From the NCBI RefSeq assembly GCF_054482525.1, contig NZ_CM137006.1: a stretch of 64,000 nucleotides of DNA; one strand, given 5' to 3'. Below the pieces are notes generated by a model, which ran no database searches, had not been told where the DNA came from, and worked only from the letters and a program-made list of their open reading frames with translations. Of the stretch, positions 852 through 50,940 are shown piece after piece. The first letter of the stretch is position 1, and each line of letters begins with the position of its first letter. Position numbers and translations under genes: made by a program.

Positions 852-1568
852 ATGAATGAATTTTTTCCTTTAGCAAGCGCCGCCGGGATGACCGTCGGCC
901 TTGCCGTTTGTGCATTGATTGTCGGGCTGGCGCTGGCGATGTTCTTTGCGGTATGGGAGTCTGCGAAATGGCGTCCTGTCGCGTGGGCAGGTTCAGCGCT
1001 GGTAACCATTCTGCGTGGCCTGCCAGAAATTCTGGTGGTGCTGTTTATCTATTTTGGCTCCTCGCAGCTGCTGCTGACGCTTTCGGATGGCTTCACCATC
1101 AATCTTGGGTTCGTGCAGATCCCGGTGCAGATGGACATTGAGAACTTCGACGTTAGCCCGTTCCTTTGTGGTGTCATCGCTCTGTCACTGCTGTATGCCG
1201 CCTATGCCTCGCAAACGCTGCGCGGCGCGTTGAAAGCGGTGCCGGTGGGCCAGTGGGAATCTGGTCAGGCGCTGGGGCTGTCGAAATCGGCTATCTTTTT
1301 CCGTCTGGTGATGCCGCAGATGTGGCGTCATGCGCTGCCTGGTCTCGGTAACCAGTGGCTGGTGCTGCTGAAAGATACCGCGCTGGTCAGTTTGATTAGT
1401 GTGAATGATTTAATGCTGCAAACCAAAAGCATCGCTACCCGTACCCAGGAACCGTTTACCTGGTACATTGTGGCGGCGGCGATTTACCTGGTGATCACCC
1501 TGCTCAGTCAGTACATTCTCAAACGCATTGACCTGCGCGCGACACGTTTTGAGCGGAGGCCCAGCTAA
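852..1568 (+). CDS. artQ: Arginine ABC transporter permease ArtQ
   Basis: 238-aa polar amino-acid permease; position in operon. Confidence 0.9.
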
Positions 1569-2236
1569 TGTTTGAGTATTTACCCGAACTGATGAAAGGG
1601 CTGCACACCAGCCTGACGCTAACCGTTGCCTCGCTGATTGTGGCACTGATTCTGGCATTGATTTTTACCATCATCCTGACACTGAAAACGCCGGTACTGG
1701 TGTGGCTGGTGCGGGGTTATATCACGCTGTTTACCGGTACGCCGCTGCTGGTGCAGATCTTCCTGATTTATTACGGGCCGGGCCAGTTCCCGACGTTGCA
1801 GGAGTATCCGGCACTGTGGCATCTGTTGTCAGAACCGTGGTTATGTGCGCTGATTGCGTTATCGCTGAACAGTGCGGCGTATACCACGCAGCTGTTTTAC
1901 GGTGCAATTCGTGCGATCCCGGAAGGTCAGTGGCAGTCCTGTAGCGCCCTGGGAATGAGCAAAAAAGATACGCTAGCGATCCTGCTGCCGTATGCCTTTA
2001 AACGCTCGCTCTCTTCTTATTCCAACGAAGTGGTGCTGGTGTTCAAAAGTACCTCTCTGGCTTACACCATTACGCTGATGGAAGTGATGGGATACAGCCA
2101 GTTGTTGTACGGACGCACCTACGATGTCATGGTGTTCGGTGCGGCAGGGATTATTTACCTGATTGTTAACGGTCTGTTGACGCTGATGATGCGTCTGATC
2201 GAGCGCAAAGCACTGGCATTCGAACGGCGGAATTAA
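1568..2236 (+). CDS. artM: Arginine ABC transporter permease ArtM
   Basis: 222-aa permease; ATG overlaps artQ TAA by 1 nt (translational coupling). Confidence 0.9.
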   Translation: MFEYLPELMKGLHTSLTLTVASLIVALILALIFTIILTLKTPVLVWLVRGYITLFTGTPLLVQIFLIYYGPGQFPTLQEYPALWHLLSEPWLCALIALSLNSAAYTTQLFYGAIRAIPEGQWQSCSALGMSKKDTLAILLPYAFKRSLSSYSNEVVLVFKSTSLAYTITLMEVMGYSQLLYGRTYDVMVFGAAGIIYLIVNGLLTLMMRLIERKALAFERRN

Positions 2237-2252
2237 TGTAGCTGCGTGCTGA

Positions 2253-2288
2253 TGCCGGATGCGTCGTGGACGTCTTACCCGACCTGCA
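2253..2288. repeat. REP (repetitive extragenic palindromic) element, degenerate
   Basis: gatgccggatgcgtcgtggacgtcttacccgacctgc resembles the REP consensus GCCGGATGCG...CTTATCCGGCCTAC; intergenic artM-artJ. Confidence 0.55.
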
Positions 2289-2311
2289 TAGTGCATAAAT
2301 TCTTATAATGA

Positions 2312-2348
2312 AGACGGACAACTCACTAAGTTGTCCGTCTTTTTTTAT
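2312..2348 (+). terminator. Intrinsic terminator downstream of artM
   Basis: Hairpin agacggacaactcactaagttgtccgtct followed by a T run. Confidence 0.75.
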
Positions 2349-2461
2349 TTCATTTAAATTATTTAATCATATTTATTGCATATAAATTCACTTGATGGCA
2401 TTGTTATCCCATGCCGCAGACACGGCCAAAAATCATAAGATTGACAGACGGGAGTTCCATC

Positions 2462-3193
2462 ATGAAAAAGTTAGTTCTTGCCGCTTTACTTGCTTCCTTT
2501 ACTTTCGGTGCTTCTGCCGCAGAGAAAATCAATTTTGGCGTTTCAGCCACCTATCCCCCCTTTGAATCTATAGGTGCTAATAATGAGATTGTCGGCTTTG
2601 ATATCGACCTGGCAAAAGCCTTGTGCAAACAAATGCAGGCAGAATGTACTTTTACTAATCACGCGTTCGACAGCCTGATCCCGTCACTGAAATTCAGAAA
2701 ATATGACGCCGTAATCTCCGGTATGGATATCACCCCGGAGCGTAGCAAACAGGTATCGTTTACCACGCCCTACTATGAAAACTCAGCCGTCGTGATTGCC
2801 AAAAAAGATACCTACAAAACGTTTGCCGATCTGAAAGGCAAACGTATTGGGATGGAAAACGGTACTACGCACCAGAAATATATTCAGGATCAGCACCCGG
2901 AAGTGAAAACTGTCTCCTATGACAGTTATCAGAATGCCTTTATCGATCTGAAAAATGGTCGTATTGATGGGGTATTTGGTGACACAGCGGTGGTTAATGA
3001 ATGGCTGAAAACCAACCCGCAACTGGGCGTTGCGACTGAAAAAGTGACCGATCCGCAATACTTCGGCACCGGCCTGGGTATCGCTGTACGTCCGGATAAC
3101 AAAGCTCTGCTGGAAAAACTGAATAACGCGCTGGCAGCAATTAAAGCTGACGGTACATATCAGAAAATCAATGACCAGTGGTTCCCACAGTAA
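2462..3193 (+). CDS. artJ: Arginine-binding periplasmic protein ArtJ
   Basis: ATG at 2462 (MKKLVLAALL...) gives 243 aa; paralog of ArtI; separate transcription unit after the artM terminator. Confidence 0.9.
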   Translation: MKKLVLAALLASFTFGASAAEKINFGVSATYPPFESIGANNEIVGFDIDLAKALCKQMQAECTFTNHAFDSLIPSLKFRKYDAVISGMDITPERSKQVSFTTPYYENSAVVIAKKDTYKTFADLKGKRIGMENGTTHQKYIQDQHPEVKTVSYDSYQNAFIDLKNGRIDGVFGDTAVVNEWLKTNPQLGVATEKVTDPQYFGTGLGIAVRPDNKALLEKLNNALAAIKADGTYQKINDQWFPQ

Positions 3194-3197
3194 GATT

Positions 3198-3228
3198 CAG
3201 AAAGCCGCACCTGCGGCTTTTTTATTGC
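3198..3228. terminator. Bidirectional intrinsic terminator shared by artJ and rlmC
   Basis: Hairpin aaagccgcacctgcggcttt flanked by A/T runs between convergent genes. Confidence 0.7.
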
Positions 3229-4349
3229 TTCACCAGCAGCGTCAGCACTTCATAGTGCGCGGTGTGCGGGAACATATCAAAAAGCTGTACCCGTTCGATG
3301 CGGTAACCTGGCAGTTCGCGGATATCTTTCGCCATGGTTTGGGCGTTACAGCTGGAGTAGATAATAAAACGCGGTGCCATCGTTGAGAGATAATCACACA
3401 GCGGTTTACCAATGCCGCGGCGCGGCGGGTTAACCAGCACCAGCTCCGGCACTTCCCCCTGGGCGGTGGCAAACTGAGTGGAGTCCAGCGCCTGAAATTG
3501 CAAACGCGTTAAGCCCAGTTCAGCAGCTGACTGATTCGCACAGGCAATGGCCTCTGGTGCAATTTCGATCCCGGTTAACTGCATGTCAAGCGTCGCGCAG
3601 TGTAAACCAAAGCCCCCCACGCCGCAGAAGAGATCCCACATATGGTTTACCGGTAGTTGCCGCACCCAGTCGCGCGCGGTAGCGTAAAGCTGGCTGGCGA
3701 CCGCCGGATTGGTCTGGAAGAAACTTTGCGGACGGATCCACAGCGGTACGTCGTTAAAACGCTCTGCCAGCGCCTGTTGTTCGGTCAGGTAGATCTCCGT
3801 CTCCCCTTCCATGATCGCCATATGTACCGGCTGAATATTGACGGTAATAACTTTTAGCTGCGGCAGTTGTTCCTGTAACCACGGCAGCGCCTTACGCAGT
3901 TGCGCCAGTTTGGTTTCAGAACGCAGTACAAAGCGCAGCATCATACCGCCATCGCTCTGGCTTTCGGTCAGCAGAATGTATTTCAGTTCGCCACGCTTAC
4001 GCGCCACGTTGTAGGGCGTTAACCCCGCTCGGGCGATAAACGGTTTTAGCGCCGCAAAAACGGGCGCAAATGAGGCAGGATAAAGCGGGCAGTCACAAAG
4101 GTCTTCTGGTGTGCCGTCTCGATGCAGCATACCGAGCAGTGGTTTTTCAACGCTACCACTCACCACCATTTTGGCTTTATTACGAAACCCTTGTTCCGGG
4201 CCTGACACCGGCGCGCACCATTCCTCAACCGGAAAGTCGGCGAGCAGATTTTTAAGATCGGCGGTTTTAGCGGAGAGTTGCTCTGGAATCGGCTGCGTTA
4301 TCCACTGACAGGAACGACAGCGACCCGCGTCGTAAAGTGCGCACTGCAT
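3222..4349 (-). CDS. rlmC: 23S rRNA (uracil747-C5)-methyltransferase RlmC
   Basis: 375-aa ORF with N-terminal Cys cluster (CRSCQW) and SAM methyltransferase fold; synteny. Confidence 0.88.
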
Positions 4350-4937: not shown

Positions 4938-5783
4938 TCAGCCACGTCTTGCACGCTGGATGTCGCGTATCCGCTGTTTTTCTGCGCGCGCCATCAGATA
5001 CCAGGCGATAAATCCGACAATTCCGACCGCGCCGAGGATCAATGTTGCCAGGGCGTTGATTTCCGGATTCACCCCCATCCGCACGCTGGAAAAGACCAGC
5101 ATCGGTAACGTGGTGGCTCCCGGCCCGGAAACAAAGCTGGCGATCACCAGATCATCAAGCGACAAAGTAAAAGCCAGTAACCAGCCAGAAATGATCGCGG
5201 GCATGATCATCGGTAGCGTAATGACAAAAAACACTTTCAGTGGCGTCGCACCGAGATCCATCGCTGCTTCTTCTATCGAGCTATCCAGTTCCCGCAGACG
5301 CGACGAAATAACGACTGCCACATAAGCCGTACAGAAAGTGACATGCGCCAGCCAGATGGTGAGCATCCCGCGGTCCGCAGGCCAGCCAATGGCATGAGCA
5401 AGCGCGACGAATAACAACAATAGCGACAAGCCCGTGATGACATCTGGCATCACCAGCGGCGCGGTGATCATAAAGGCAAAACCATTTGATCCGCGAAACC
5501 TGCCAAAGCGCACCAGCACGACCGCCGCAATCGTCCCGAGGATCGCCGCCGCCGTCGCCGCACAGGCCGCAATTGTCAGGCTTAAACCAACCGCACTCAT
5601 CATTGCGTCATCGCGCAATAACTCACCATACCAGCGTGTTGACCAGCCGGCCCACACCGTCACCAGCTTCGAGCTGTTGAATGAATAGATCACCAGCATC
5701 AGCATTGGCGCGTAGAGAAAGGTGAAGCCCAGCAGCAAAATCACAATCCGCCAGGGCGAACGAACTACCGGTAAATTATTCAT
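4938..5783 (-). CDS. potI: Putrescine ABC transporter permease PotI
   Basis: Start at MNNLPVV gives 281 aa; 4-nt overlap with potH. Confidence 0.88.
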   Translation of the reverse strand: MNNLPVVRSPWRIVILLLGFTFLYAPMLMLVIYSFNSSKLVTVWAGWSTRWYGELLRDDAMMSAVGLSLTIAACAATAAAILGTIAAVVLVRFGRFRGSNGFAFMITAPLVMPDVITGLSLLLLFVALAHAIGWPADRGMLTIWLAHVTFCTAYVAVVISSRLRELDSSIEEAAMDLGATPLKVFFVITLPMIMPAIISGWLLAFTLSLDDLVIASFVSGPGATTLPMLVFSSVRMGVNPEINALATLILGAVGIVGFIAWYLMARAEKQRIRDIQRARRG

Positions 5784-6724
5784 CCGTGTTCTCCCACGCT
5801 TTTTTGCTGATGCTTGTGGAACCACATTATCGGCACAATTAGCAGCAGCAACATGATGATCGCTACCGCTGAGGCCACCGGCCAGTCGCGATTGTTAAAG
5901 AACTCCTGCCATAGCACGCGCCCGATCATGATGCTGTCCGGGCCACCGAGCAGTTCAGGGATCACAAACTCGCCCACAGCCGGGATAAACACCAGCATCG
6001 ATCCGGCAATAATCCCGCCTTTGGTCAGCGGCACGATCACAGTAAAGAACGTTTTCAGCGGTCTTGCACCGAGATCCAGTGCCGCTTCCACCAGCGAATA
6101 ATCAATACGAATCAACGCGGTATAAATCGGCAGCACCATAAACGGCACATAGGCGTAAACAATGCCAATATAAACGGCCAGATTGGTATGCAGAATGGTC
6201 AGAGGTTGATCGATAACCCCCAGCCACAGCAGAAAATTATTCAGCACGCCGTTATTTTTTAATATTCCCATCCAGGCATAAACGCGGATCAGAAACGAGG
6301 TCCACGACGGCAGGATCACCAGTAGTAATAAGATATTACGGGTCGAGGGCTTACTGTGCGCCACCGCCCACGCCAGCGGATAGCCGATCAGTAAACAGCA
6401 AATAGTCGAAATCGCCGCCACCTGTAGCGACTGGAGATAAGCATCGAAATAGAGCGGATCGTCGGTCAGTTGCAGGAAATTACCGAGATTAAGAGTGATG
6501 GAAAGTTGCCCGTCAGCCCACTCCATCAGTTCGGTATAAGGTGGAATGGCGCGCGCCATCTCCGCCAGGCTTATTTTAAAAACGATCAGAAATGGCAGCA
6601 GAAACAGCAGGATTAGCCAGATATAGGGCAGCGCAATCACCAGTTTTCGCCCATGCTTCATTTGCAACTGCGACAGCCACAGCTTAAAGGGTTTTGGCTG
6701 GGCAGCAGGTTCAAGTGTACTCAT
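5780..6724 (-). CDS. potH: Putrescine ABC transporter permease PotH
   Basis: 314-aa permease; GGAG ribosome-binding site 8 nt upstream of the ATG. Confidence 0.88.
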   Translation of the reverse strand: MSTLEPAAQPKPFKLWLSQLQMKHGRKLVIALPYIWLILLFLLPFLIVFKISLAEMARAIPPYTELMEWADGQLSITLNLGNFLQLTDDPLYFDAYLQSLQVAAISTICCLLIGYPLAWAVAHSKPSTRNILLLLVILPSWTSFLIRVYAWMGILKNNGVLNNFLLWLGVIDQPLTILHTNLAVYIGIVYAYVPFMVLPIYTALIRIDYSLVEAALDLGARPLKTFFTVIVPLTKGGIIAGSMLVFIPAVGEFVIPELLGGPDSIMIGRVLWQEFFNNRDWPVASAVAIIMLLLLIVPIMWFHKHQQKSVGEHG

Positions 6725-6733
6725 CTTTGCTCC

Positions 6734-7867
6734 TTAAACCGTCAGCACCACACAGCTGTCCACTTCCCAGCACAAACGCACTTCGTCGCCCCAGGTCGGT
6801 AACCCTTTACGATGACGATGGGCGTTTTGTAGCTGGGCGCTAATCATCTGCCCACTTTTCAGACGAACGTGATACACCGAAAGATCGCCGAGATAGGCAA
6901 TGTGTATCACCTCCCCCACCGCGAAGTTACAACCATTGGCGGGCGGCTCTTCGCAAAGCATGATTTTTTCCGGACGCAGCGCTACGTGTACCGGCACGTT
7001 ATCAACCACTGAAGCATCTGCATCGACTTTCAGTGGGTGCACCAGTCCCGGCGAATAAAGCACCAGACCATCTTCCTGACGCTCTTTGAGTACACCTTCA
7101 AAGACATTAACCGAACCGATAAATTCAGCGCTATAGCGGGTGGTCGGATGCTCATAGATCTCTTCCGGTTCGCCAATCTGGACAAATTTCCCGCGATTCA
7201 TAATGGCGATACGCCCCGCCATGGTCATCGCCTCTTCCTGATCGTGAGTAACCATCACGCAGGTCACACCGACGCGCTCCAGAATATCCACCACTTCAAG
7301 CTGCATCCGGTCACGCAGCTTTTTATCCAGTGCGCCCATCGGCTCATCGAGCAGTAATAGTTTCGGGCGCTTGGCAAGGCTTCGGGCCAGTGCCACACGC
7401 TGTCGCTGACCGCCGGAAAGCTGATGCGGTTTGCGTTTGGCGAACTCCTGCATATGCACCAGCCCGAGCATCTCATTGACCCGGCTGGCAATTTCCGCTT
7501 TCGGCAATTTGTCCTGTTTCAGGCCAAAAGCGATATTCTGTTCCACGGTCATATGCGGAAACAGCGCGTAAGACTGAAACATCATATTGATGGGGCGCAG
7601 GTAAGGCGGTACCTGTGACAAATCGACGCCATCGAGCATAATCTGCCCGACAGAAGGTTGTTCGAAACCTGCCAGCATACGCAGCAGCGTGGACTTGCCA
7701 CAGCCGGATGCGCCCAGCAGCGCGAAGATTTCACCTTTGTAGATGGTCAGGCTGACATCATCCACCGCATGTTGACCATCGTAGGATTTGGTGAGGTTGC
7801 GGATTTCTAATAGCGGCGTCAGCGCCTTACGGGTTTTCGCCTGCGGGCGAGGGATAGCGTCATTCAC
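6734..7867 (-). CDS. potG: Putrescine ABC transporter ATP-binding protein PotG
   Basis: 377 aa; Walker A GASGCGKST and ABC signature LSGGQRQR. Confidence 0.9.
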   Translation of the reverse strand: MNDAIPRPQAKTRKALTPLLEIRNLTKSYDGQHAVDDVSLTIYKGEIFALLGASGCGKSTLLRMLAGFEQPSVGQIMLDGVDLSQVPPYLRPINMMFQSYALFPHMTVEQNIAFGLKQDKLPKAEIASRVNEMLGLVHMQEFAKRKPHQLSGGQRQRVALARSLAKRPKLLLLDEPMGALDKKLRDRMQLEVVDILERVGVTCVMVTHDQEEAMTMAGRIAIMNRGKFVQIGEPEEIYEHPTTRYSAEFIGSVNVFEGVLKERQEDGLVLYSPGLVHPLKVDADASVVDNVPVHVALRPEKIMLCEEPPANGCNFAVGEVIHIAYLGDLSVYHVRLKSGQMISAQLQNAHRHRKGLPTWGDEVRLCWEVDSCVVLTV

Positions 7868-21004: not shown

Positions 21005-21716
21005 ATATCCTCCGGCATAGCCGGAGGTTTTTCAAATGCGCCTATAAGGCTCTCTTACCAGCCGCGCCCTAACAGGCGCACACGATCTGACATTTGCATC
21101 CAACTTCGTTACTTACGGCCCGTAAACGGGCTGCCCGGATAGGGAATCGATAACTGCTCTCCCATTTTATCCTCTTCAAGCTGGTGCTTTATGTAATCCT
21201 GTATCTTCGCCGTGTTCTTACCCACCGTATCGACGTAGTACCCTCTGCACCAGAACTCCCTGTTCCTGTATTTGAATTTCAAATCACCAAACTGCTCGTA
21301 AAGCATCAGACTGCTTTTCCCTTTCAGATATCCCATAAAGCCGGATACGCTCATTTTGGGCGGGATCTCCACAAGCATATGGATATGATCTGCACAGCAT
21401 TCAGCTTCCAGAATCCGTACACTTTTCCACTCACACAGCTTTCTCAAAATACTGCCTATTGCTCTACGCTTCTCTCTGTAGAACACCTGTCTTCGGTATT
21501 TTGGCGCAAAAACTATGTGATATTTACAGTTCCATCGGGTGTGCGCTAAGCTCTTTTCGTTCCCCATTGGGACCCCCTTTTGATTTCTTGTTTGACACTT
21601 GCAGTTGCCAGACCGCAAGGTGTTTTAACAAATCAAAAGGGGTTTTAATAACTGGCTTAAAGCTGAAAGCTTTCCGGAACCCCCAGCCTAGCTGGGGGTT
21701 TTCTGTGCACAATAAC
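21005..21716 (-). mobile_element. IS200 insertion sequence (IS200/IS605 family); ends approximate
   Basis: Encodes an IS200 TnpA; upstream of tnpA lie a perfect palindrome (aacccccagcctagctgggggtt, 21678-21699) and a second stem-loop over the ribosome-binding site; fills almost the whole deoR-dacC intergenic space. Confidence 0.8.
21109..21567 (-). CDS. tnpA: IS200 transposase TnpA (HUH/Y1 single-strand transposase)
   Basis: MGNEKSLAHTRWNCKYHIVFAPKYRR...HIHMLVEIPPK... 152 aa, intact. Confidence 0.92.
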   Translation of the reverse strand: MGNEKSLAHTRWNCKYHIVFAPKYRRQVFYREKRRAIGSILRKLCEWKSVRILEAECCADHIHMLVEIPPKMSVSGFMGYLKGKSSLMLYEQFGDLKFKYRNREFWCRGYYVDTVGKNTAKIQDYIKHQLEEDKMGEQLSIPYPGSPFTGRK

Positions 21717-27017: not shown

Positions 27018-28346
27018 TTACTGCCAGCTAATCTGTGCCCTGCCGTTTTTCTTACTCTCATACAGCCGCTCATCCGCCAGCATTTTCAAGCGTTCGACGG
27101 TAGGACATTCATTTGAATGCGCTACACCGATACTGGTGCTTAAATTAATGCTTCCCACCTGGAAATGAACGATTTCTTTTAGAATCGATAGCAACTCTTC
27201 CAGCGTTCCACCCGTATAAATCACCGCAAATTCGTCACCGCCGAAGCGGTAGACTTTACCTTTATCTACGGGGATCTGTGATTTAAGGATTTTCACCACT
27301 TTCATCAACACTTCATCGCCCAGCAAATGACCGAAGGTGTCGTTGATGTTTTTGAATTTATCGACGTCAAACAGGCACAAATAACCACCTTTTTCCGGCA
27401 GCGCTTTTAAATCTTCGTCAAAGGATTTTCTGCCCATTGCTTTGGTCAGGTCATCCAGGAACGCCGAGTTATACAGACTGTAGAGTTTTTTGACATCGGC
27501 AGCCGAAAAGAAAAGCCCGCCATCCAGTACGCGTTCAAAATGGTTATTAATGATGGCTTCTTTCTCCACAATACCACGATTAATCACTCTGCGTACCAGA
27601 TAGAGGCAACTGACACCCGATATCACTGCCACCAATGCGGCAAAGAAAATAATCAATGTACAGACCCGCAAATAAACATCTTTTTTATACGCAAATACGT
27701 ACAATCCGGTCGGCAAATAGGCGAAGTGCTCCATCGCTTCCGAAACGGTGAAGATGGCGTTTTTAGCATTAAATTCATCACCGGTCACCGGTTTACCGTT
27801 CTTAAACAGAGAGAACATCAGGTTCTCGCTATCCATCGCCAGCGATTTTGACAGTAAAGAAAAACGCTCCAGACCAAGCAAAAATATCAGACTGCGATTG
27901 TGAGTTACCGGATAGAGGTAATAGACGAAGGTTTTACCGTCAAAAGAGATAAACCCTGTATTTTTGACATGTCGATACTTCACAATCTGCATAATATCTG
28001 CACAATAATTTTTCTCGAACTCCTTTACCTGAATACATTCGTCACTGGAAATCAGATAAGGACCGACATCGTACAAATAAGAGGGTGAAACCGAGTCGGC
28101 GTAAGCTGTGCGCAAACCAACCAACAGCTGTTCCTCCGTGGGGTTTAGCGTGTTGATGAGATCAATTGCCACGCTACGCCGATATTCAGCAATATTTGCC
28201 ACCGCAAAAGCAGTATCAATAACGGACTGTTTCAGGCCATACACCCGTTCCTTTACCATTTGAGTGTAGATCCCGCAGGCAACTGCTGAAATCATGATAA
28301 AAATCAGCAGACTGACTGTAAGTACGAACTTATTGATTCTGGACAT
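27018..28346 (-). CDS. dgcI: Diguanylate cyclase DgcI (YliF)
   Basis: 442 aa; membrane N-terminus and C-terminal GGDEF domain (RFGGDEF). Confidence 0.9.
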
Positions 28347-28353
28347 ACGTAAA

Positions 28354-30702
28354 CTACTCTTTTACTAATTTTCCACTTTTATCCCAGGCGGAGAATGGCA
28401 TGGGTTTCTGGTACAGATACCCCTGAGCCTGAACACATCCTAATTTGATTAATTCGCGCGCAACGTCTTCGCTCTCTACGCCTTCCGCAATCACCGGGAT
28501 CCGGTTATAGCGTGCCAGATCGAAAATAATGCGCACAATTTTTCCCGCAGTACCGAAAATATCACCGGTAAATTGTGAGTCCACTTTTATGCTATCTGGA
28601 TTAATTTCATAAAAACGTTTCAGGTTTGACAAACCGGTGCCAAAGTCATCAATCGATATCCGTACCCCTTGTTTACGCAGTTGTTCAATATTGAGATAAA
28701 AATGTTCATTAATTCACTCGATCACGGTTTCAGTGATCTCAACACAGAGGCTGTTCTCCTTCAGGCCATTTTCTTTCATGATGGTGGTAAAACGCTCATG
28801 AAAGTGTGGTTCGTTTAACTGCCAGGGCGAAACATTAATATGCAGTAAGAAATCATCCTTCAGCGACGCACGCTGACTAAAATGTCTGAATTCACCCATT
28901 GCCGTTTTAATAATCTGATAACCCAGCTCATTGATAAACCCGATATCTTCAGCAATGGTAATGAACTTTAGCGGTGAAATGATCCCCCGCTCCGCAGACA
29001 CCCAACGGCACAACGCCTCCGCGCCCAGAATGGCGCGGGTGTTAATATCAACGATCGGTTGATAGACGAGGAATAGTTCGCCAATTTCCATTGCATGGCG
29101 AATATTACGCGCAATCCAGATATTCTCTTCTATTTCGTTGAGTTTCGCGTCATCACAGAAAATAAACTCTGAGAACATATGGTCACGGATACTGGAAATC
29201 GCCAGTTTCAGTTTTTCTGCGTAACTCCAGGCGTTTTCTCCCTGCAAAGGTTCACAAATGGCAGACTTATGGATGCGCAGATTGCGGTAGCCAAAGCTGC
29301 TGTCAAAATCGTTTATCATCGCTATTTTACGGGTAAATGTCTGTACATTTTCCCGGCACAGAAGTAAATAGAGATCGGCATTGAATGTCACGATATCGCA
29401 GCATTGCGCATATTTCTCGGCAATTCGCTGACACAATTTCCTGACGATTTTATTGCGTTCATCAACACCAAACACCGCTTCCACGGCTTCCAGACCACAC
29501 AGTTTGATGATCCCCACAGCCAGATACTGATTATTGTTGGACTCAATAATCGCCATATTTTTAATAAAACCGCTTTCCTGATCGTAAGAGATCAGTGAGA
29601 GCAATTTATTTGACCGTTCAATTTCGGCATCTTTCATTTCCGCGATCGAATTTTTGATGCTGATAATCTCTTTCGCATCGCCTTCGCGAATTTTCAGAGC
29701 CTCGATTTGATCCGTTGAGTCAGGCAAAAACGCCAGCGTATTAACCAGTTCTGTCATTTCAGAAAATTGCCGACGGAACACACGAGTGGTCATTAAATAA
29801 ACCACCAACAATACGATAATAATGAACGCAAACGGCAGATAAAAAAGTTTATCTGATGCGTTCAATAAATTACCGCCAGGATAATAAAAATAGATTTCGA
29901 ATAATGCGTTGTTTGGCACCACTGATGTTTTTTCGATATATTCAGTATCGACAGAATCAATAATATTATAATTACCTTCGCTATTATAAATAATCAGTTT
30001 TTCACGCGCGAGTTGATTCTTGGCAATGATCTCATGGCCTTGTTTCAAAAATAGAACTTCATCATTAGCGCTGATTTGATCAAGATACTCGTTCAGATAT
30101 CGCCAGTTTAAATCGACATGTATTTTATCCACCGCTAACAAATCGTGATCTTTGCCGTTGATGCGTAGCGTAAAAGAGATACATTTTTTACCCGGACGAT
30201 CAAAGCAATTGTAGGCCGGATTCCAGCTGTTGTTAGAGTCATCTGAAGCCACCGACCATGGTCGTTTCGATGGATTAAAATCGGCAAAAATAACCCGCCC
30301 TGACTCGTCGACAAGCGGTCCATTTACTTCTTCCTGATGATAAACAACGATTTTATCATTCGCCCTCCGCGAAAAGAGATAATATTTATTATCATCAAGT
30401 ACCAGTCCCACCGAGTCTAAAAATGGCATCATTTCCATTTTAAGGATCACAGCGCGTTGAATCTCCTCTGTATTTTTTAATAAATACAGTGAGTCCTTTA
30501 ATGTCAGGGCCGAACGTTCAATATCTTTAAAGAAATAGCCAACGTTTTTCTGAATAAGTTCAAAGCGGCTATCGGCACGTTTTACCGCGCGTTCCGATAC
30601 CAGTTGATAGTTAATGATGAAAAAAAGGCCAATAAATGACAGTGCTGCCAATAAAAATAAAATTATCAGCCTTATCTTTATCTTTTCGTATAAACTCAGC
30701 AT
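28354..30702 (-). pseudogene. pdeI: c-di-GMP phosphodiesterase PdeI (YliE), interrupted by an in-frame TGA
   Basis: Single reading frame from ATG 30702 to 28354 is 782 codons, the K-12 PdeI length, but codon 663 is TGA (28714-28716); the stop falls between EITETVIE and INEHF...ISIDDFGTG of the EAL domain. Confidence 0.8.
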
Positions 30703-30879
30703 GTTAATACATTTAACAAAATAACTGTCTGAACGCTGTGCCGCTGCAAAAACAGTCCCTTGCTGCGGCTTTTTAACCAAATTACCCGATTCTACAAAAT
30801 CAGCAGAAAGTTACAACACTTGCTTAGGGCAATAATTTCCTGTGAGGTGATTACCCTTTCAAGCAATATTCAAACGTAA

Positions 30880-44630: not shown

Positions 44631-45896
44631 ATGGCTTCTACTTTTACCAGCGACACATTGCCTGCCGATCACAAAGCAGCTATCCGTCAGATGAAGCACG
44701 CGCTGCGGGCACAGCTTGGCGACGTCCAGCAGATCTTTAATCAGCTAAGCGATGACATTGCTACGCGAGTGGCTGAAATCAACGCACTCAAAGCACAGGG
44801 CGATGCCGTCTGGCCGGTGCTGTCTTATGCCGATATCAAAGCAGGTCATGTTACTGCAGAGCAGCGCGAACAGATTAAACGTCGCGGTTGTGCGGTGATA
44901 AAAGGCCATTTCCCCCGCGAACAAGCGCTAGGCTGGGATCAGTCGATGCTGGACTATCTGGACCGCAACCGCTTTGACGAGGTCTACAAAGGCCCCGGCG
45001 ATAATTTCTTCGGGACGCTCAGCGCTTCACGTCCCGAGATTTACCCCATCTACTGGTCGCAGGCGCAAATGCAGGCTCGCCAGAGTGAAGAAATGGCGAA
45101 TGCGCAGTCGTTTCTCAATCGTCTGTGGACATTTGAAAGTGATGGAAAGCAATGGTTTAACCCGGATGTGAGCGTCATCTACCCTGACCGTATCCGCCGC
45201 CGTCCGCCCGGAACGACCTCCAAAGGTCTTGGAGCGCATACCGACTCCGGGGCACTGGAACGCTGGCTGCTTCCAGCGTATCAGCGCGTTTTCGCCAACG
45301 TCTTTAATGGCAATCTGGCGCAATATGATCCCTGGCATGCGGCACATCGTACGGAAGTTGAAGAGTACACGGTGGACAACACCACCAAATGTTCCGTGTT
45401 TCGGACATTCCAGGGCTGGACAGCGCTCTCTGATATGCTGCCTGGTCAGGGGCTGCTGCACGTCGTGCCTATTCCTGAAGCCATGGCGTACGTACTGTTA
45501 CGTCCGCTGCTTGATGATGTGCCGGAGGATGAACTGTGCGGCGTAGCGCCCGGAAGAGTATTGCCGGTATCAGAGCAATGGCATCCACTGTTGATTGAGG
45601 CGTTAACCAGCATTCCAAAACTCGAAGCCGGAGACTCCGTCTGGTGGCACTGCGACGTCATCCATTCCGTTGCCCCCGTTGAAAATCAACAGGGCTGGGG
45701 CAACGTGATGTACATTCCTGCGGCACCGATGTGCGAGAAAAATCTTGCCTACGCGCACAAGGTGAAGGCCGCACTGGAAAAAGGCGCATCGCCGGGCGAC
45801 TTCCCGCGCGAGGACTATGAAACAAACTGGGAAGGACGCTTTACGCTTGCCGACCTCAACATTCACGGTAAGCGAGCGTTGGGAATCGACAGCTGA
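44631..45896 (+). CDS. ybiU: DUF1479-family protein YbiU
   Basis: 421 aa from MASTFTSD; synteny. Confidence 0.85.
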   Translation: MASTFTSDTLPADHKAAIRQMKHALRAQLGDVQQIFNQLSDDIATRVAEINALKAQGDAVWPVLSYADIKAGHVTAEQREQIKRRGCAVIKGHFPREQALGWDQSMLDYLDRNRFDEVYKGPGDNFFGTLSASRPEIYPIYWSQAQMQARQSEEMANAQSFLNRLWTFESDGKQWFNPDVSVIYPDRIRRRPPGTTSKGLGAHTDSGALERWLLPAYQRVFANVFNGNLAQYDPWHAAHRTEVEEYTVDNTTKCSVFRTFQGWTALSDMLPGQGLLHVVPIPEAMAYVLLRPLLDDVPEDELCGVAPGRVLPVSEQWHPLLIEALTSIPKLEAGDSVWWHCDVIHSVAPVENQQGWGNVMYIPAAPMCEKNLAYAHKVKAALEKGASPGDFPREDYETNWEGRFTLADLNIHGKRALGIDS

Positions 45897-46966
45897 GTGT
45901 CGTACAGCCCTTCCCGTTCCACGGCGGTGTTCCCTTTTCCTGGGCGAACCCGCCGCACTGACTCCCGCACCGCCAATCGTCCGTGCAGCAGCAGCGAGCC
46001 CACCGGAGCATCCGGGCGAATCAGCCGCTGTTGCAACATTTGCACCGCTTCATTGCCTAGCTCATCGCGTGGCACATGCACAGCCGTCAGGGGAACATCC
46101 TCGATTGCCGCAAGGTTAAAGCCGTCGATACTCATCACCGAGACATCCTGTGGTACGCGCAGACCACGACGATGTAGCGCATTTACCGTTCCCGCCGCCA
46201 TAAAATCCCCGCCGACCAGAAACGCCGTCGGCAACGTCTTGCCATTGGCGGCATCCAGCCACGCTCCGACCTTTTCTTCCGCTTCTTTAGCGCTAAAACT
46301 GCTGATATTCAGCAAATGACGGTCATGGTGAAAGGCCAGATTATGCTGACGCCATGATTCTTTAATCCCTGCAAACCGCTGCTCCATAGTGTAGCGGCGC
46401 AGGCACATCACATTCATCACCTCCCGGTGACCCATTTCAAACAGATAGCGGGCGGCGAACGCGCCAATTAACCGATGGTCCGGCGCAATCGCCGGGAGGC
46501 GCATTCGTTCATCACGGCAGTTGATCAGCACACAAGGCTTAGCGAGATCGGCGGCCAGATCATGGATGTGCGGATCGTCAATCCCCAGCAGGATCGCCGC
46601 CTGCGTATCTGCTTCATTCATCCGCGAGAGAAATAGCGCGGGATCGCTGTCAAACTCCTCCAGCGCGCAGTAACGCAGCCGCACTTCATGCGGCGATAAC
46701 GCTTTGCTGATGCTCTGGATCACACGGTAATAAAAGATATCAGATCGTTGGTCAAAAGCGCGTTGCGGCGCGAAAATAATCAGGTTGTTCAGCAACATAC
46801 GACCTGCTGCCATGCCATCCATCACGCCCAACTCACGCGCGCAGGCCAGCACCTGTTCGCGAGCGCGTGCACTGGTATTCGCTTTGCCAGCCAGCACCCG
46901 CGAAACCGTACTCGGCGATAGCCCGGTACGTGCGGCGATATCGGCGATTTTCAACTTCTTGTCCAT
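45863..46966 (-). CDS. LacI-family transcriptional regulator (accessory; absent from K-12 at this position)
   Basis: N-terminal helix-turn-helix MDKKLKIADIAARTGLSPSTVSRVLAG and periplasmic-binding-protein-like sugar-binding core; 367 aa from ATG 46966; 3' end overlaps the ybiU 3' end by 34 bp. Confidence 0.85.
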   Translation of the reverse strand: MDKKLKIADIAARTGLSPSTVSRVLAGKANTSARAREQVLACARELGVMDGMAAGRMLLNNLIIFAPQRAFDQRSDIFYYRVIQSISKALSPHEVRLRYCALEEFDSDPALFLSRMNEADTQAAILLGIDDPHIHDLAADLAKPCVLINCRDERMRLPAIAPDHRLIGAFAARYLFEMGHREVMNVMCLRRYTMEQRFAGIKESWRQHNLAFHHDRHLLNISSFSAKEAEEKVGAWLDAANGKTLPTAFLVGGDFMAAGTVNALHRRGLRVPQDVSVMSIDGFNLAAIEDVPLTAVHVPRDELGNEAVQMLQQRLIRPDAPVGSLLLHGRLAVRESVRRVRPGKGNTAVEREGLYDTQLSIPNARLP

Positions 46967-47260
46967 TTTGTGATCTGCCTCTAATTCGGAAATGACAGAA
47001 TTTTCATGAGCAAAAAAGCCCATTCTGTCTGGCATTAAATCCATTTCAGTAATGTATATCAGTCACTCATGGAAAAACGTGCACAAAACCCGCTTTCTTT
47101 CGCTTTTAGGGTCTCTTACTGTGAATTGGTAGAACAACTTCCATACAAAAATAATGGAAAAACGAACAATAAAGACTTTATTTATCAAAAAGTTAAAAGT
47201 GGTGTGACAACTCCATTCTGACGTTGCCGCACAAACCCTATACCATTCTGTGGAGTGCAT

Positions 47261-48562
47261 ATGAGTCAGGGTATCAATAACGATATGACTGCCAGTAAAC
47301 CGCGCCATATCGTCAAAAATCTGCGTTGGTGGATACTGGTCCTTTTTTTGCTCGGTGTTACTGTCAACTACATCACGCGTAACTCGCTGGGTATTCTCGC
47401 CCCCGAACTGAAAAGCAGCCTGGGGATTACCACCGAACAATATTCCTGGATTGTAGGTGCTTTCCAGCTCGCCTATACCCTATTCCAACCGTTGTGTGGA
47501 TGGCTGATTGACGTCATTGGCCTCAAACTGGGCTTTATGATCTGCGCGGGACTGTGGGCGCTGGCCTGTCTGATGCATGCGGGGGCGGGAAACTGGGTAC
47601 ATCTGGCGCTGTTGCGCTTCTTTATGGGCGGTGCGGAAGCCGCGGCAACCCCAGCAAACGCCAAAACCATCGGTGAATGGTTTCCAAAATCAGAACGCCC
47701 GATCGCCGCAGGCTGGGCAGGCGTCGGTTTTTCCATCGGTGCCATGCTGGCCCCACCGATTATCTATTTTGCCCACGCTTCATTCGGCTGGCAGGGTGCA
47801 TTTATGTTCACTGGCATCCTGGCGATGCTGTGGGTGGTGCTGTGGTGGGCGTTCTATCACAACCCGGATAAGCATCCTAACCTCAGCAAAGCCGAACTGG
47901 ACTTTATCCGCCAGGATAACGAAGCGCCCCCTGTCAAGTTACCCTTTCTGACCGCACTGAAAACCGTAGGCAAAAATAAACGCTTTTACGGTATCGCTAT
48001 CCCGGCCTTTATGGCAGAACCGGCGTGGGCGGTGATGAGTTTCTGGGTTCCGCTATACCTGTCCAAAACCTATGGCATGGACCTGAAGCAGATCGCATTA
48101 TTCGCCTGGTTGCCGTTCCTCGCCGCTGATCTTGGCAGTATTGCCAGCGGCTATCTGACCAAACTTTACACCCGCCTGTTTGGGCTGAGTCGTGTGAACT
48201 CCGTTGTCGCATCATCGGTCAGTGGCGCATTCCTGATGGTTTCGCTGGCGGTGATGGCCTTTACCAATAACCCGTATATCGCCATCGTCCTTATTTCCAT
48301 CGGCGGCTTCGGTCACCAGATCATCTCCTGCATGCTGAGCGCACTGGTGGTGGAATCCTTCGACAAAGGTCAGATGGCCACTGTTAACGGCATGCGCGGT
48401 TCTGCCGCGTGGATCGCAAGTTTCCTGTTCTCCCTGATTATCGGGGTTACCGCTGACAAAATCGGCTTTACCCCCCTGTTTATCGCCATGGGCTTCTTTG
48501 ACCTGATTGGTGCTTTCTTCCTGGTCACCTTTATTGCTGAACGTCGCGCAAAACGCGCCTGA
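47261..48562 (+). CDS. MFS transporter of the anion:cation symporter family, ExuT-like (accessory)
   Basis: About 40% identity by eye to E. coli ExuT across the N-terminal half (LAPELKSSLGITTEQYSWIVGAFQLAYTLFQP...); 12-TM MFS; start ATG 47261 or GTG 47255. Confidence 0.85.
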   Translation: MSQGINNDMTASKPRHIVKNLRWWILVLFLLGVTVNYITRNSLGILAPELKSSLGITTEQYSWIVGAFQLAYTLFQPLCGWLIDVIGLKLGFMICAGLWALACLMHAGAGNWVHLALLRFFMGGAEAAATPANAKTIGEWFPKSERPIAAGWAGVGFSIGAMLAPPIIYFAHASFGWQGAFMFTGILAMLWVVLWWAFYHNPDKHPNLSKAELDFIRQDNEAPPVKLPFLTALKTVGKNKRFYGIAIPAFMAEPAWAVMSFWVPLYLSKTYGMDLKQIALFAWLPFLAADLGSIASGYLTKLYTRLFGLSRVNSVVASSVSGAFLMVSLAVMAFTNNPYIAIVLISIGGFGHQIISCMLSALVVESFDKGQMATVNGMRGSAAWIASFLFSLIIGVTADKIGFTPLFIAMGFFDLIGAFFLVTFIAERRAKRA

Positions 48563-48576
48563 GAGTGGATGTAAAC

Positions 48577-50940
48577 ATGAAAACGCTGAAAAACTGGACC
48601 CTGCACAAACAGTCTGCCCACCACGTTGAACTGCTGGTCGATGGCCAGCATATCCTGTGCCTGTACGTGCTGGAAGAAAATCTGTTCCGCGTGCTGTTAA
48701 AACGCAAAGGCGAGCTGGCGCTGGATCGCACCTGGAGCATTGCTCCGGCGCAGGATGTGCCATGGGAAGGGCGCAGCCGCGAAGATCTCAGCGGCTTTAG
48801 CCTGCCCGCGTGGACATTGATCCAGCACGACGACACCGTGGTTATCGCCACCGAGTCACTGCGTGCCACCGTTCACCAGCCGCTGTGGCTGGAGTGGCAC
48901 TATCGTAACAACGAAGGCGAATGGCTGCCGTTGGTGAATGACCGCCCGACCAGCGCTTATCTGCTGAATGCCCACGGCGACGGCGTGGCGCACTATCAGA
49001 GCCGTCGTAAAGATGAACGCTTTTATGGCCTCGGAGATAAAGCCGGCGACCTGCAACGCAACGGTAAACGTTACGAGATGCGTAACCTCGACGCGATGGG
49101 CTACAACGCCGTTAGTACTGACCCGTTGTACAAACACATTCCATTCACCATCACCCGCCGCGATGACATTAGCTTCGGCCTGTTTTATGACAACCTCAGC
49201 AGCTGCTGGCTGGATCTGGGCAACGAGATCGACAACTACCACACCGCCTATCGCCGCTGGCAGGCGGAAGCGGGTGATATCGACTACTACCTGTTTACCG
49301 GCGAACGCGTACTTGATATCACCAAAGCCTTCGTACGCCTGACCGGAAAAACCCTGTTCGGACCGAAATGGAGCCTGGGCTACAGCGGTTCAACTATGCA
49401 CTACACCGATGCGCCGGACGCACAAAATCAGTTGATGAACTTTATCCGCCTGTGTGAAGAACATGCGATTCCCTGCGATTCGTTCCAGCTCTCTTCCGGT
49501 TATACCTCAATTAACGGCAAGCGCTATGTGTTCAACTGGAATTACGACAAAGTGCCGCAGCCGAAAGTGATGAGCCAGGCATTTCACAATGCTGGTTTGC
49601 ACCTGGCCGCCAATATCAAGCCGTGCCTGTTGCAGGATCACCCACGCTATAACGAAGTGGCAGAAAGAGGACTGTTCATCCGTGATTCAGAAACAGATGA
49701 ACCAGAACGTTCCAGCTTCTGGGATGACGAAGGTTCTAACCTCGACTTTACTAATCCGCAGACCATACAGTGGTGGCAGGAAGGCGTGACCACACAGCTT
49801 CTGGAGATGGGTATCGACTCCACCTGGAACGACAACAACGAATTCGAAGTGTGGGACGGTGAAGCACGCTGTCACGGCTTTGGTCAGACGATCGCGATCA
49901 AACATATTCGCCCGGTGATGCCACTGCTGATGATGCGAGCCTCGATGGAAGCCCAGCAACGTTTCGCTCCGGAAAAACGTCCGTACTTGATCTCCCGCTC
50001 CGGCTGCGCGGGAATGCAGCGCTATGTGCAGACCTGGAGCGGCGATAACCGCACTAGCTGGGACACTCTGCGCTACAACACCCGCATGGGTCTGGGGATG
50101 AGCCTCTCCGGGCTGTATAACCTCGGTCACGACGTCGGCGGTTTCTCCGGTGATAAGCCGGACCCGGAACTGTTTGTACGCTGGGTACAAAACGGCGTGA
50201 TGCATCCGCGCTTTACGATTCACTCATGGAACGATGACCATACCGTAAACGAACCGTGGATGTATCCGGGTGTCACTCCGGCGATCCGCAGCGCTATTGA
50301 GTTGCGCTATCGCCTGCTGCCCTACTTTTATACCCTGATGTGGCAGGCATACGCCGATGATGAACCAATGCTACGTCCGACTTTCCTTGACCACGAGCAC
50401 GACGTTCAGACTTTTGAAGAGTGTGATGACTTCCTGCTTGGTCGCGATATTTTGGTTGCCAGCGTCGTAGAGCAAGGCGAGCGCCAGCGCCGTGTATGGC
50501 TGCCAGATAACGAAACTGGCTGGTACGATTTCTACAACGGCGAATGGTTCAGTGGCGGTCAGTGGATCACCCTCGACGCACCGCTGGAGAAACTGCCGCT
50601 GATGGTGCGTGCCGGGGCTGGTCTACCGCTCAGCAAACGCATCACCTATGTGAGCGCAGAACAAGACGATACCCGCGAACTGAAACTGTTCCCGCTGAAA
50701 GGTGTGGGCACAACGTCCGGCCTGCTGTTTGAAGACGATGGCGAAAGCTGGGGCTACCAAACTGGTAATGCGCTTTGGGTGGAATGGGAAATGGTTTGCG
50801 ATGGGGCGACCATCAACCTGAAAGTCAACGCGCGCGGGGATTATCGTCCTGCATGGAGTGCACTGAAAGTGTCATTACCAGTGGAAGAAAAACGCACGCT
50901 GCTGGTCAATGGTGTTGAAGGGAGTGAATGGATGCGTTAA
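48577..50940 (+). CDS. Glycoside hydrolase family 31 alpha-glycosidase (accessory), specificity unknown
   Basis: GH31 motifs: nucleophile region STWNDNNEFE, acid/base region QTWSGDNRTSW and GHDVGGF; 787 aa from ATG 48577; 14 nt after the transporter stop (operon). Confidence 0.85.
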   Translation: MKTLKNWTLHKQSAHHVELLVDGQHILCLYVLEENLFRVLLKRKGELALDRTWSIAPAQDVPWEGRSREDLSGFSLPAWTLIQHDDTVVIATESLRATVHQPLWLEWHYRNNEGEWLPLVNDRPTSAYLLNAHGDGVAHYQSRRKDERFYGLGDKAGDLQRNGKRYEMRNLDAMGYNAVSTDPLYKHIPFTITRRDDISFGLFYDNLSSCWLDLGNEIDNYHTAYRRWQAEAGDIDYYLFTGERVLDITKAFVRLTGKTLFGPKWSLGYSGSTMHYTDAPDAQNQLMNFIRLCEEHAIPCDSFQLSSGYTSINGKRYVFNWNYDKVPQPKVMSQAFHNAGLHLAANIKPCLLQDHPRYNEVAERGLFIRDSETDEPERSSFWDDEGSNLDFTNPQTIQWWQEGVTTQLLEMGIDSTWNDNNEFEVWDGEARCHGFGQTIAIKHIRPVMPLLMMRASMEAQQRFAPEKRPYLISRSGCAGMQRYVQTWSGDNRTSWDTLRYNTRMGLGMSLSGLYNLGHDVGGFSGDKPDPELFVRWVQNGVMHPRFTIHSWNDDHTVNEPWMYPGVTPAIRSAIELRYRLLPYFYTLMWQAYADDEPMLRPTFLDHEHDVQTFEECDDFLLGRDILVASVVEQGERQRRVWLPDNETGWYDFYNGEWFSGGQWITLDAPLEKLPLMVRAGAGLPLSKRITYVSAEQDDTRELKLFPLKGVGTTSGLLFEDDGESWGYQTGNALWVEWEMVCDGATINLKVNARGDYRPAWSALKVSLPVEEKRTLLVNGVEGSEWMR

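Follow-up and report, generated by a model that had tools for sequence, protein, structure and literature searches.

The pdeI gene of the Escherichia coli strain analyzed here very probably carries a genuine, recent and lineage-restricted nonsense mutation, R663*, which leaves it either as a pseudogene or as a gene for a catalytically inactive truncated protein. The mutation lies in the window, that is, the whole stretch of 64,000 nucleotides that was analyzed, and was compared with the K-12 gene, with close relatives and with public genome collections.

Interruption of the pdeI reading frame

Translation of the minus strand from 30702 to 28354 gave a frame of 782 codons followed by a terminal TAG and interrupted by a single internal stop, in the context ...CVEITETVIE*INEHFYL.... 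The ORF list breaks the frame at this codon, 663, into 28714..30780 and 28354..28632. The sequence-only reading had reported an in-frame TGA at 28714-28716 in a frame of the K-12 length, and comparison with K-12 MG1655 pdeI (b0833; 2349 nt, 782 aa) bore this out. The two genes are collinear and differ at 31 of 2349 nt (98.7% nucleotide identity), and the proteins show five amino-acid differences besides codon 663. The gene is preceded by gsiABCD and followed by dgcI, rimO, bssR and yliI, an order found in K-12 and in all relatives examined; its position between gsiD and dgcI-rimO and its full-length near-identity to b0833 place it in the PdeI/YliE orthologue group. A chance break of an open reading frame was ruled out, since the frame matches intact genes at 100% identity once the single changed base is set aside. 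The features of the locus are:

28354..30702, minus strand: pdeI (yliE, b0833 orthologue), full ancestral 782-codon frame, interrupted (translation, comparison with K-12 and relatives, synteny)
28714..30702, minus strand: truncated pdeI ORF, 662 aa plus stop (Pfam domain limits, 5 public contigs)
28714..28716, minus strand: premature stop TGA, pdeI codon 663 (translation, comparison with relatives)
28354..28713, minus strand: orphaned 3' part of pdeI, codons 664-782 plus stop (encodes DDFGTG, KVD, EGVE and QGY)
30253..30600, minus strand: region coding for the CHASE9 periplasmic sensor, residues 35-150, retained (Pfam PF17153, E 5e-62)
28402..29109, minus strand: region coding for the EAL domain, residues 532-767, cut after residue 662 (Pfam PF00563, E 2e-69; alignment with 5yrp and 2r6o)
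27018..28346, minus strand: dgcI (yliF), intact 442-codon gene for a GGDEF diguanylate cyclase (ORF list, TIGR00254)
27059, minus strand: dgcI missense SNP, AAG to GAG, K430E, derived (comparison with relatives)

The Pfam limits of CHASE9 and EAL were taken from the intact orthologue, the SCU-102 protein, on which the EAL match covers model positions 2-236 of 236; this sequence is still encoded in the window DNA. K-12 PdeI (YliE, b0833) is a membrane protein of the type CHASE9-TM-(degenerate GGDEF)-EAL. The window shares with it the gsiABCD-pdeI-dgcI-rimO synteny, the 782-codon frame, the CHASE9 and EAL regions and the coding capacity for all consensus EAL residues (PMC3484386), every one of which has been tabulated as intact in YliE of strain CFT073 (PMC3484386). 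The two differ at codon 663, which is CGA in K-12 and TGA in the window, where the product ends at residue 662.

Origin and age of the R663* allele

Codon 663 is CGA in K-12, SCU-102, 19KM1776, AST215 and GCA_053421995.1. The alignment thus identifies CGA (Arg) as the ancestral codon, with K-12 PdeI continuing through position 663, and the derived base as the T on the coding strand (A at position 28716 of the plus strand). A Dcm hotspot was considered as the cause of this C-to-T change and rejected, the context GATCGAGCGAATT being without CCWGG.

The closest complete genomes are SCU-102 (human, USA) and 19KM1776 (dog, Switzerland). Both are annotated with intact pdeI, and in each the gene differs from that of the window only at nt 1987, C as against T. 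The window therefore has what marks a pseudogene, an in-frame stop within a conserved ORF at a codon that is a sense codon in close relatives. Among complete RefSeq E. coli genomes 5,422 of 5,426 possess pdeI, and in a 61-mer search over the nonsense site 4583 of the 4584 matching complete genomes differed from the window. The only other complete genome with R663* was AHS8C65RI, discussed below.

Over about 63 kb the window differs from SCU-102 by 6 substitutions, 0 indels and one 706-bp IS200C insertion. Two of the substitutions in the 64 kb alter proteins, pdeI R663* and dgcI K430E; the remaining four (7939, 41397, 54857 and 63211) comprise one intergenic change (potF/potG) and three synonymous ones (ybiW D104, ybiR V58 and ybiO A53). 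The order of the two protein-altering changes was given by GCA_053421995.1, which is identical to the window across 9,329 bp except for C at the nonsense site and whose pdeI encodes 782 aa. Since this genome has K430E together with an intact pdeI, K430E arose first and R663* afterwards, indicating that the stop is very recent. A survey of the allele, which the sequence-only reading had proposed, showed it to be restricted to a small sub-lineage near SCU-102 and 19KM1776, apart from one independent recurrence.

Consequence for the PdeI protein

The EAL motifs of PdeI (EALCR at 562, HINVS at 621, EITE at 655-658, DDFGTG at 685-690, KVD at 706, EGVE at 740 and QGY at 760) match those of the solved EAL domains 5yrp and TBD1265 (2r6o) column for column. 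The stop therefore falls between EITE and DDFGTG, where the sequence-only reading had put it. The truncated protein keeps E562/R566, N623 and E655/T657/E658, and is left without D685/D686 of the DDFGTG loop 6, K706, E740/E743, Q760 and the last strands of the TIM-like barrel. In all, residues 663-782 are removed and with them about half of the metal-binding and catalytic residues of the EAL domain, so that the complete set is absent from the translated product. What would be translated is the CHASE9 sensor, two TM segments, a divergent GGDEF-like linker and the first ~131 of ~236 EAL residues.

Enzymological work on EAL proteins (RocR, TBD1265 and YahA, with mutagenesis of RocR and TBD1265) has established that losing any one such residue abolishes activity. 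Given the loss of these residues and of barrel strands, the R663* product is expected to be unable to bind metals or to hydrolyze c-di-GMP. The earlier claim that essential EAL residues are removed thus agrees with the residue-by-residue alignment, and loss of phosphodiesterase activity is, by analogy with these enzymes, a safe inference. The truncated PdeI probably misfolds and is degraded. The orphaned 3' part offers little for a restart of translation, as its in-frame restarts are TTG or GTG only, none with a Shine-Dalgarno-like sequence; a gene caller gives a 76-aa remnant in this part.

dgcI and the c-di-GMP balance

The sequence-only reading had described the adjacent dgcI as intact. This stood as far as the reading frame and the active site are concerned: DgcI is an uninterrupted protein of 442 aa that scores 90.1 bits against TIGR00254 (cut-off 37.4) and has RFGGDEF and, in the C-terminal helix, K432 and R436, the sequence features of a diguanylate cyclase. 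The gene is not, on the other hand, identical to that of its relatives, owing to K430E. This substitution lies two residues before the conserved Lys432, at a position that varies among GGDEF domains: the aligned residue is Glu in DgcZ, an active cyclase, but Ile in DosC and Lys in 3ign. Because the position is variable and an active enzyme has Glu there, K430E is probably harmless to DgcI, as far as the alignment can tell. E430 was absent from all 5,248 complete genomes matching the site and was found on at least 24 public contigs (26 blocks in the index).

An intact cyclase next to a disabled phosphodiesterase had suggested that DgcI is left unopposed, with a rise in local c-di-GMP, more biofilm and less motility. 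In favor of this, pdeI and dgcI are neighbors on one strand only 7 nt apart, dgcI retains its full length and active-site residues, an intact dgcI accompanied every broken pdeI sampled, and DgcI is reported to produce c-di-GMP in Shigella flexneri (PMC13320778). The published data on the two genes nevertheless make the shift unlikely. DgcI is among four GGDEF/EAL proteins that were undetectable in K-12 (PMC5635695). In CFT073, neither motility nor adherence changed when yliE was deleted, and adherence rose when yliF was deleted, contrary to what is expected of a cyclase (PMC3484386). Biofilm of an MG1655 F' yliE mutant was slightly more invaded by EAEC in vitro, with no effect in mice (PMC3646849). 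PdeI and DgcI are not known to interact. Moreover, the direction of the net effect of intact PdeI on c-di-GMP is disputed: its overexpression blocks phage N4, as is seen with other phosphodiesterases (PMC7553319, PMC8669469), whereas in another study it raised c-di-GMP 11-fold in a G412-dependent manner (PMC11651652).

The arrangement of the operon also argues against an unopposed DgcI. The dgcI ATG lies 7 nt past the normal end of pdeI, the only Shine-Dalgarno-like sequence before it is a weak GAG, and the stop at codon 663 leaves 368 nt untranslated upstream of this ATG. With so long an untranslated stretch and so weak a GAG, translational coupling between pdeI and dgcI is probably lost, and expression of dgcI would, if anything, be lowered through the lost coupling. 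Strong Rho-dependent polarity is not predicted from composition: the 368 nt past the stop have a C/G ratio of 0.73 and contain no C-rich, G-poor window. An internal dgcI promoter was also considered and rejected, 8 promoter-like sites having been found as against 8.5 expected in shuffled sequence.

These considerations did not uphold the suggested shift of c-di-GMP toward synthesis or the effects on biofilm and motility. The phenotypic effect of R663* would rather be small or conditional. The poor expression of both genes in K-12 and the frequent loss of pdeI in E. coli make relaxed selection the most likely explanation.

Recurrent loss of pdeI and possible selection

In a 2026 pangenome study of 2,377 E. 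coli genomes, pdeI was one of the genes that most frequently occur as pseudogenes (PMC13322260). Gene callers produce a 76-aa C-terminal remnant where pdeI is broken upstream, and this remnant is indexed in 560 blocks, of which the ten loci listed were taken as a sample. They contained about nine different pdeI lesions, and dgcI was of 442 aa in 10 of 10. The lesions were:

R663* (the window allele)
Q674*
E699*
single-nucleotide deletions at codons 679 (in two genomes), 695 and 696
insertion of an IS element at nt 2093
deletion of nt 701-2051 (codons 234-684), linked to IS1
nine single-base indels in one genome, resembling assembly error

In addition, IS1 was found inside pdeI in three complete genomes.

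Not all public frameshift 'pseudogenes' of pdeI are to be trusted at face value. In the chromosome-level sequence LR134225.1 the nine single-base indels are scattered over the pdeI region (1390-3731 of the retrieved locus) and are most likely long-read consensus errors. In CP026824.1, gsiD (296-1206 of the retrieved locus), which adjoins a frameshifted pdeI, is also split, into 189 aa and 121 aa, which suggests wider gene decay in that lineage.

Strain AHS8C65RI (NZ_CP125885.1, QMY05_RS15845; chicken, China) has the identical CGA-to-TGA change at codon 663, with an intact dgcI downstream, and PGAP annotates its pdeI as a pseudogene with an 'internal stop'. Its pdeI differs from that of the window at 49 nt, the differences closest to the stop being 41 nt before and 122 nt after it, and its DgcI has Lys430 where the window has Glu430. 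Since the haplotypes differ so closely around the stop, R663* in AHS8C65RI is of independent origin.

The recurrence of R663*, and the finding that both protein-altering changes of the window fall in one operon, are two hints of selection rather than drift. A stable truncated protein might keep a role other than phosphodiesterase activity, such as raising c-di-GMP or acting as a scaffold or trigger, and might be selected for it. One study has linked the PdeI region containing G412, the residue needed for the 11-fold rise on overexpression, to raised c-di-GMP and persister formation (PMC11651652), and this residue is kept in the truncated product. NCBIfam alignments of tandem GGDEF-EAL proteins (GepA, DosP) run from PdeI residue ~377 onward, which fits a degenerate GGDEF-like region. 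The stop also recurs on an unrelated haplotype, and the two protein-altering changes would both fall in the pdeI-dgcI operon with a probability of about 0.07 by chance, judged post hoc. If the truncated protein did act in this way, altered signalling, possibly with higher c-di-GMP and persistence, would follow.

Several observations make such a separation of functions decidedly improbable, more so than the shift toward synthesis discussed above. Pfam does not recognize a GGDEF domain in PdeI, and residues 330-530, searched against PDB sequences, gave only a meaningless match at E 0.5. Half of a TIM-like barrel is expected to misfold. In the phage N4 assay overexpressed PdeI behaved like a phosphodiesterase (PMC7553319). 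The lesions found elsewhere are heterogeneous and include the early IS1-linked deletion of codons 234-684, so that simple loss fits better. Furthermore, pdeI has 45 sites at which a transition yields a stop, 4 of them CGA codons, and with this many sites and many pdeI pseudogenes a single coincidence is unsurprising. The probability that R663* was selected as a separation-of-function allele, and that K430E followed by R663* represents an adaptive rewiring of the pdeI-dgcI module in place of neutral decay, is accordingly put a shade lower still.

Simple loss of pdeI also agrees with what is known of related genes. Natural inactivation of genes for c-di-GMP turnover (pdeR, pdeI, pdeC, dgcQ and dgcE) is recurrent in E. 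coli and Shigella, and R663* of the window belongs to this pattern, from which it differs in being confined to a small sub-lineage and in being younger than the private dgcI substitution K430E.

Sequencing error and recoding

A sequencing or assembly error, with CGA as the true codon and an intact pdeI in the source strain, had been named as the alternative. The nearest relatives differ by a single base only, and LR134225.1, with its nine indels, is an example of public pdeI 'lesions' that resemble errors. On the other hand, the exact 662-aa product was found on 5 contigs from several samples, which may be one isolate or a clonal set, both in NCBI and among the Logan assemblies, which were built independently. 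Two different contigs with this product exceed 200 kb, and GCA_050498145.1 is 100% identical to the window over 7,989 bp, TGA included. The change is a substitution, a transition, and not a homopolymer indel. The comparison with SCU-102, which gave no indels and only six substitutions, three of them synonymous, over about 63 kb, indicates that the assembly is clean. These results leave very little probability for an error, and a genuine R663* mutation, inherited as its presence in several assemblies shows, is the reading retained here.

Programmed recoding, with UGA read as selenocysteine or read through efficiently to give normal full-length PdeI, is highly improbable: with A as the next base, UGA terminates rather weakly in E. 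coli, but the codon is one base from Arg-coding ancestors, so that no co-evolved recoding signal is possible, the relatives have CGA, an Rfam scan of 28300-28900 gave one spurious sub-threshold hit only, and PGAP handles the identical lesion as an internal stop. Of the three stop codons, UGA is the most prone to leak in E. coli, and the base after the TGA of codon 663 is A; a small amount of full-length Trp663 PdeI may be made by readthrough of the nonsense codon.

Other features of the window

An IS200C-family element of 706 bp occupies positions 21005-21710 in the dacC-deoR intergenic region, with its tnpA ORF at 21109-21618 on the minus strand. It was identified by NCBIfam transpos_IS200 (E 3e-43), and five target bases stand on both sides of it in the alignment. 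None of the complete E. coli genomes searched, SCU-102 included, has the element at the dacC-deoR site; SCU-102 carries about 10 IS200C copies elsewhere. Divergence was considered as the reason why no complete genome gave a contiguous 24-kb match, and was rejected in favor of this insertion, SCU-102 being near-identical on direct alignment.

Between ybiU and ybiT (45863-50940) the window has genes for a LacI-family regulator, an MFS transporter and a GH31 glycoside hydrolase. This three-gene block has the look of an accessory sugar-utilization island; it is annotated in SCU-102, and a part only of the best-matching genomes list it. A RelE/ParE toxin and HTH antitoxin pair lies between dgcI and rimO in AST215 and in a metagenome scaffold (6755-7460 and 5137-5842 of the retrieved loci), and is absent from this position in the window and in SCU-102.

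Conclusions

R663* is a real, ordinary pseudogene mutation of a kind that is already well documented, and the same lesion has already been flagged by PGAP. For annotation, pdeI should be marked here as a pseudogene, the 662-aa and 76-aa products not being two genes. The allele is a further natural knockout in a c-di-GMP gene whose loss is frequent in E. coli, and it carries little weight alone. The window strain and GCA_053421995.1, one base apart over 9.3 kb, form a nearly isogenic natural pair, which could help to settle whether PdeI lowers or raises c-di-GMP and whether the loss of pdeI alters dgcI expression.
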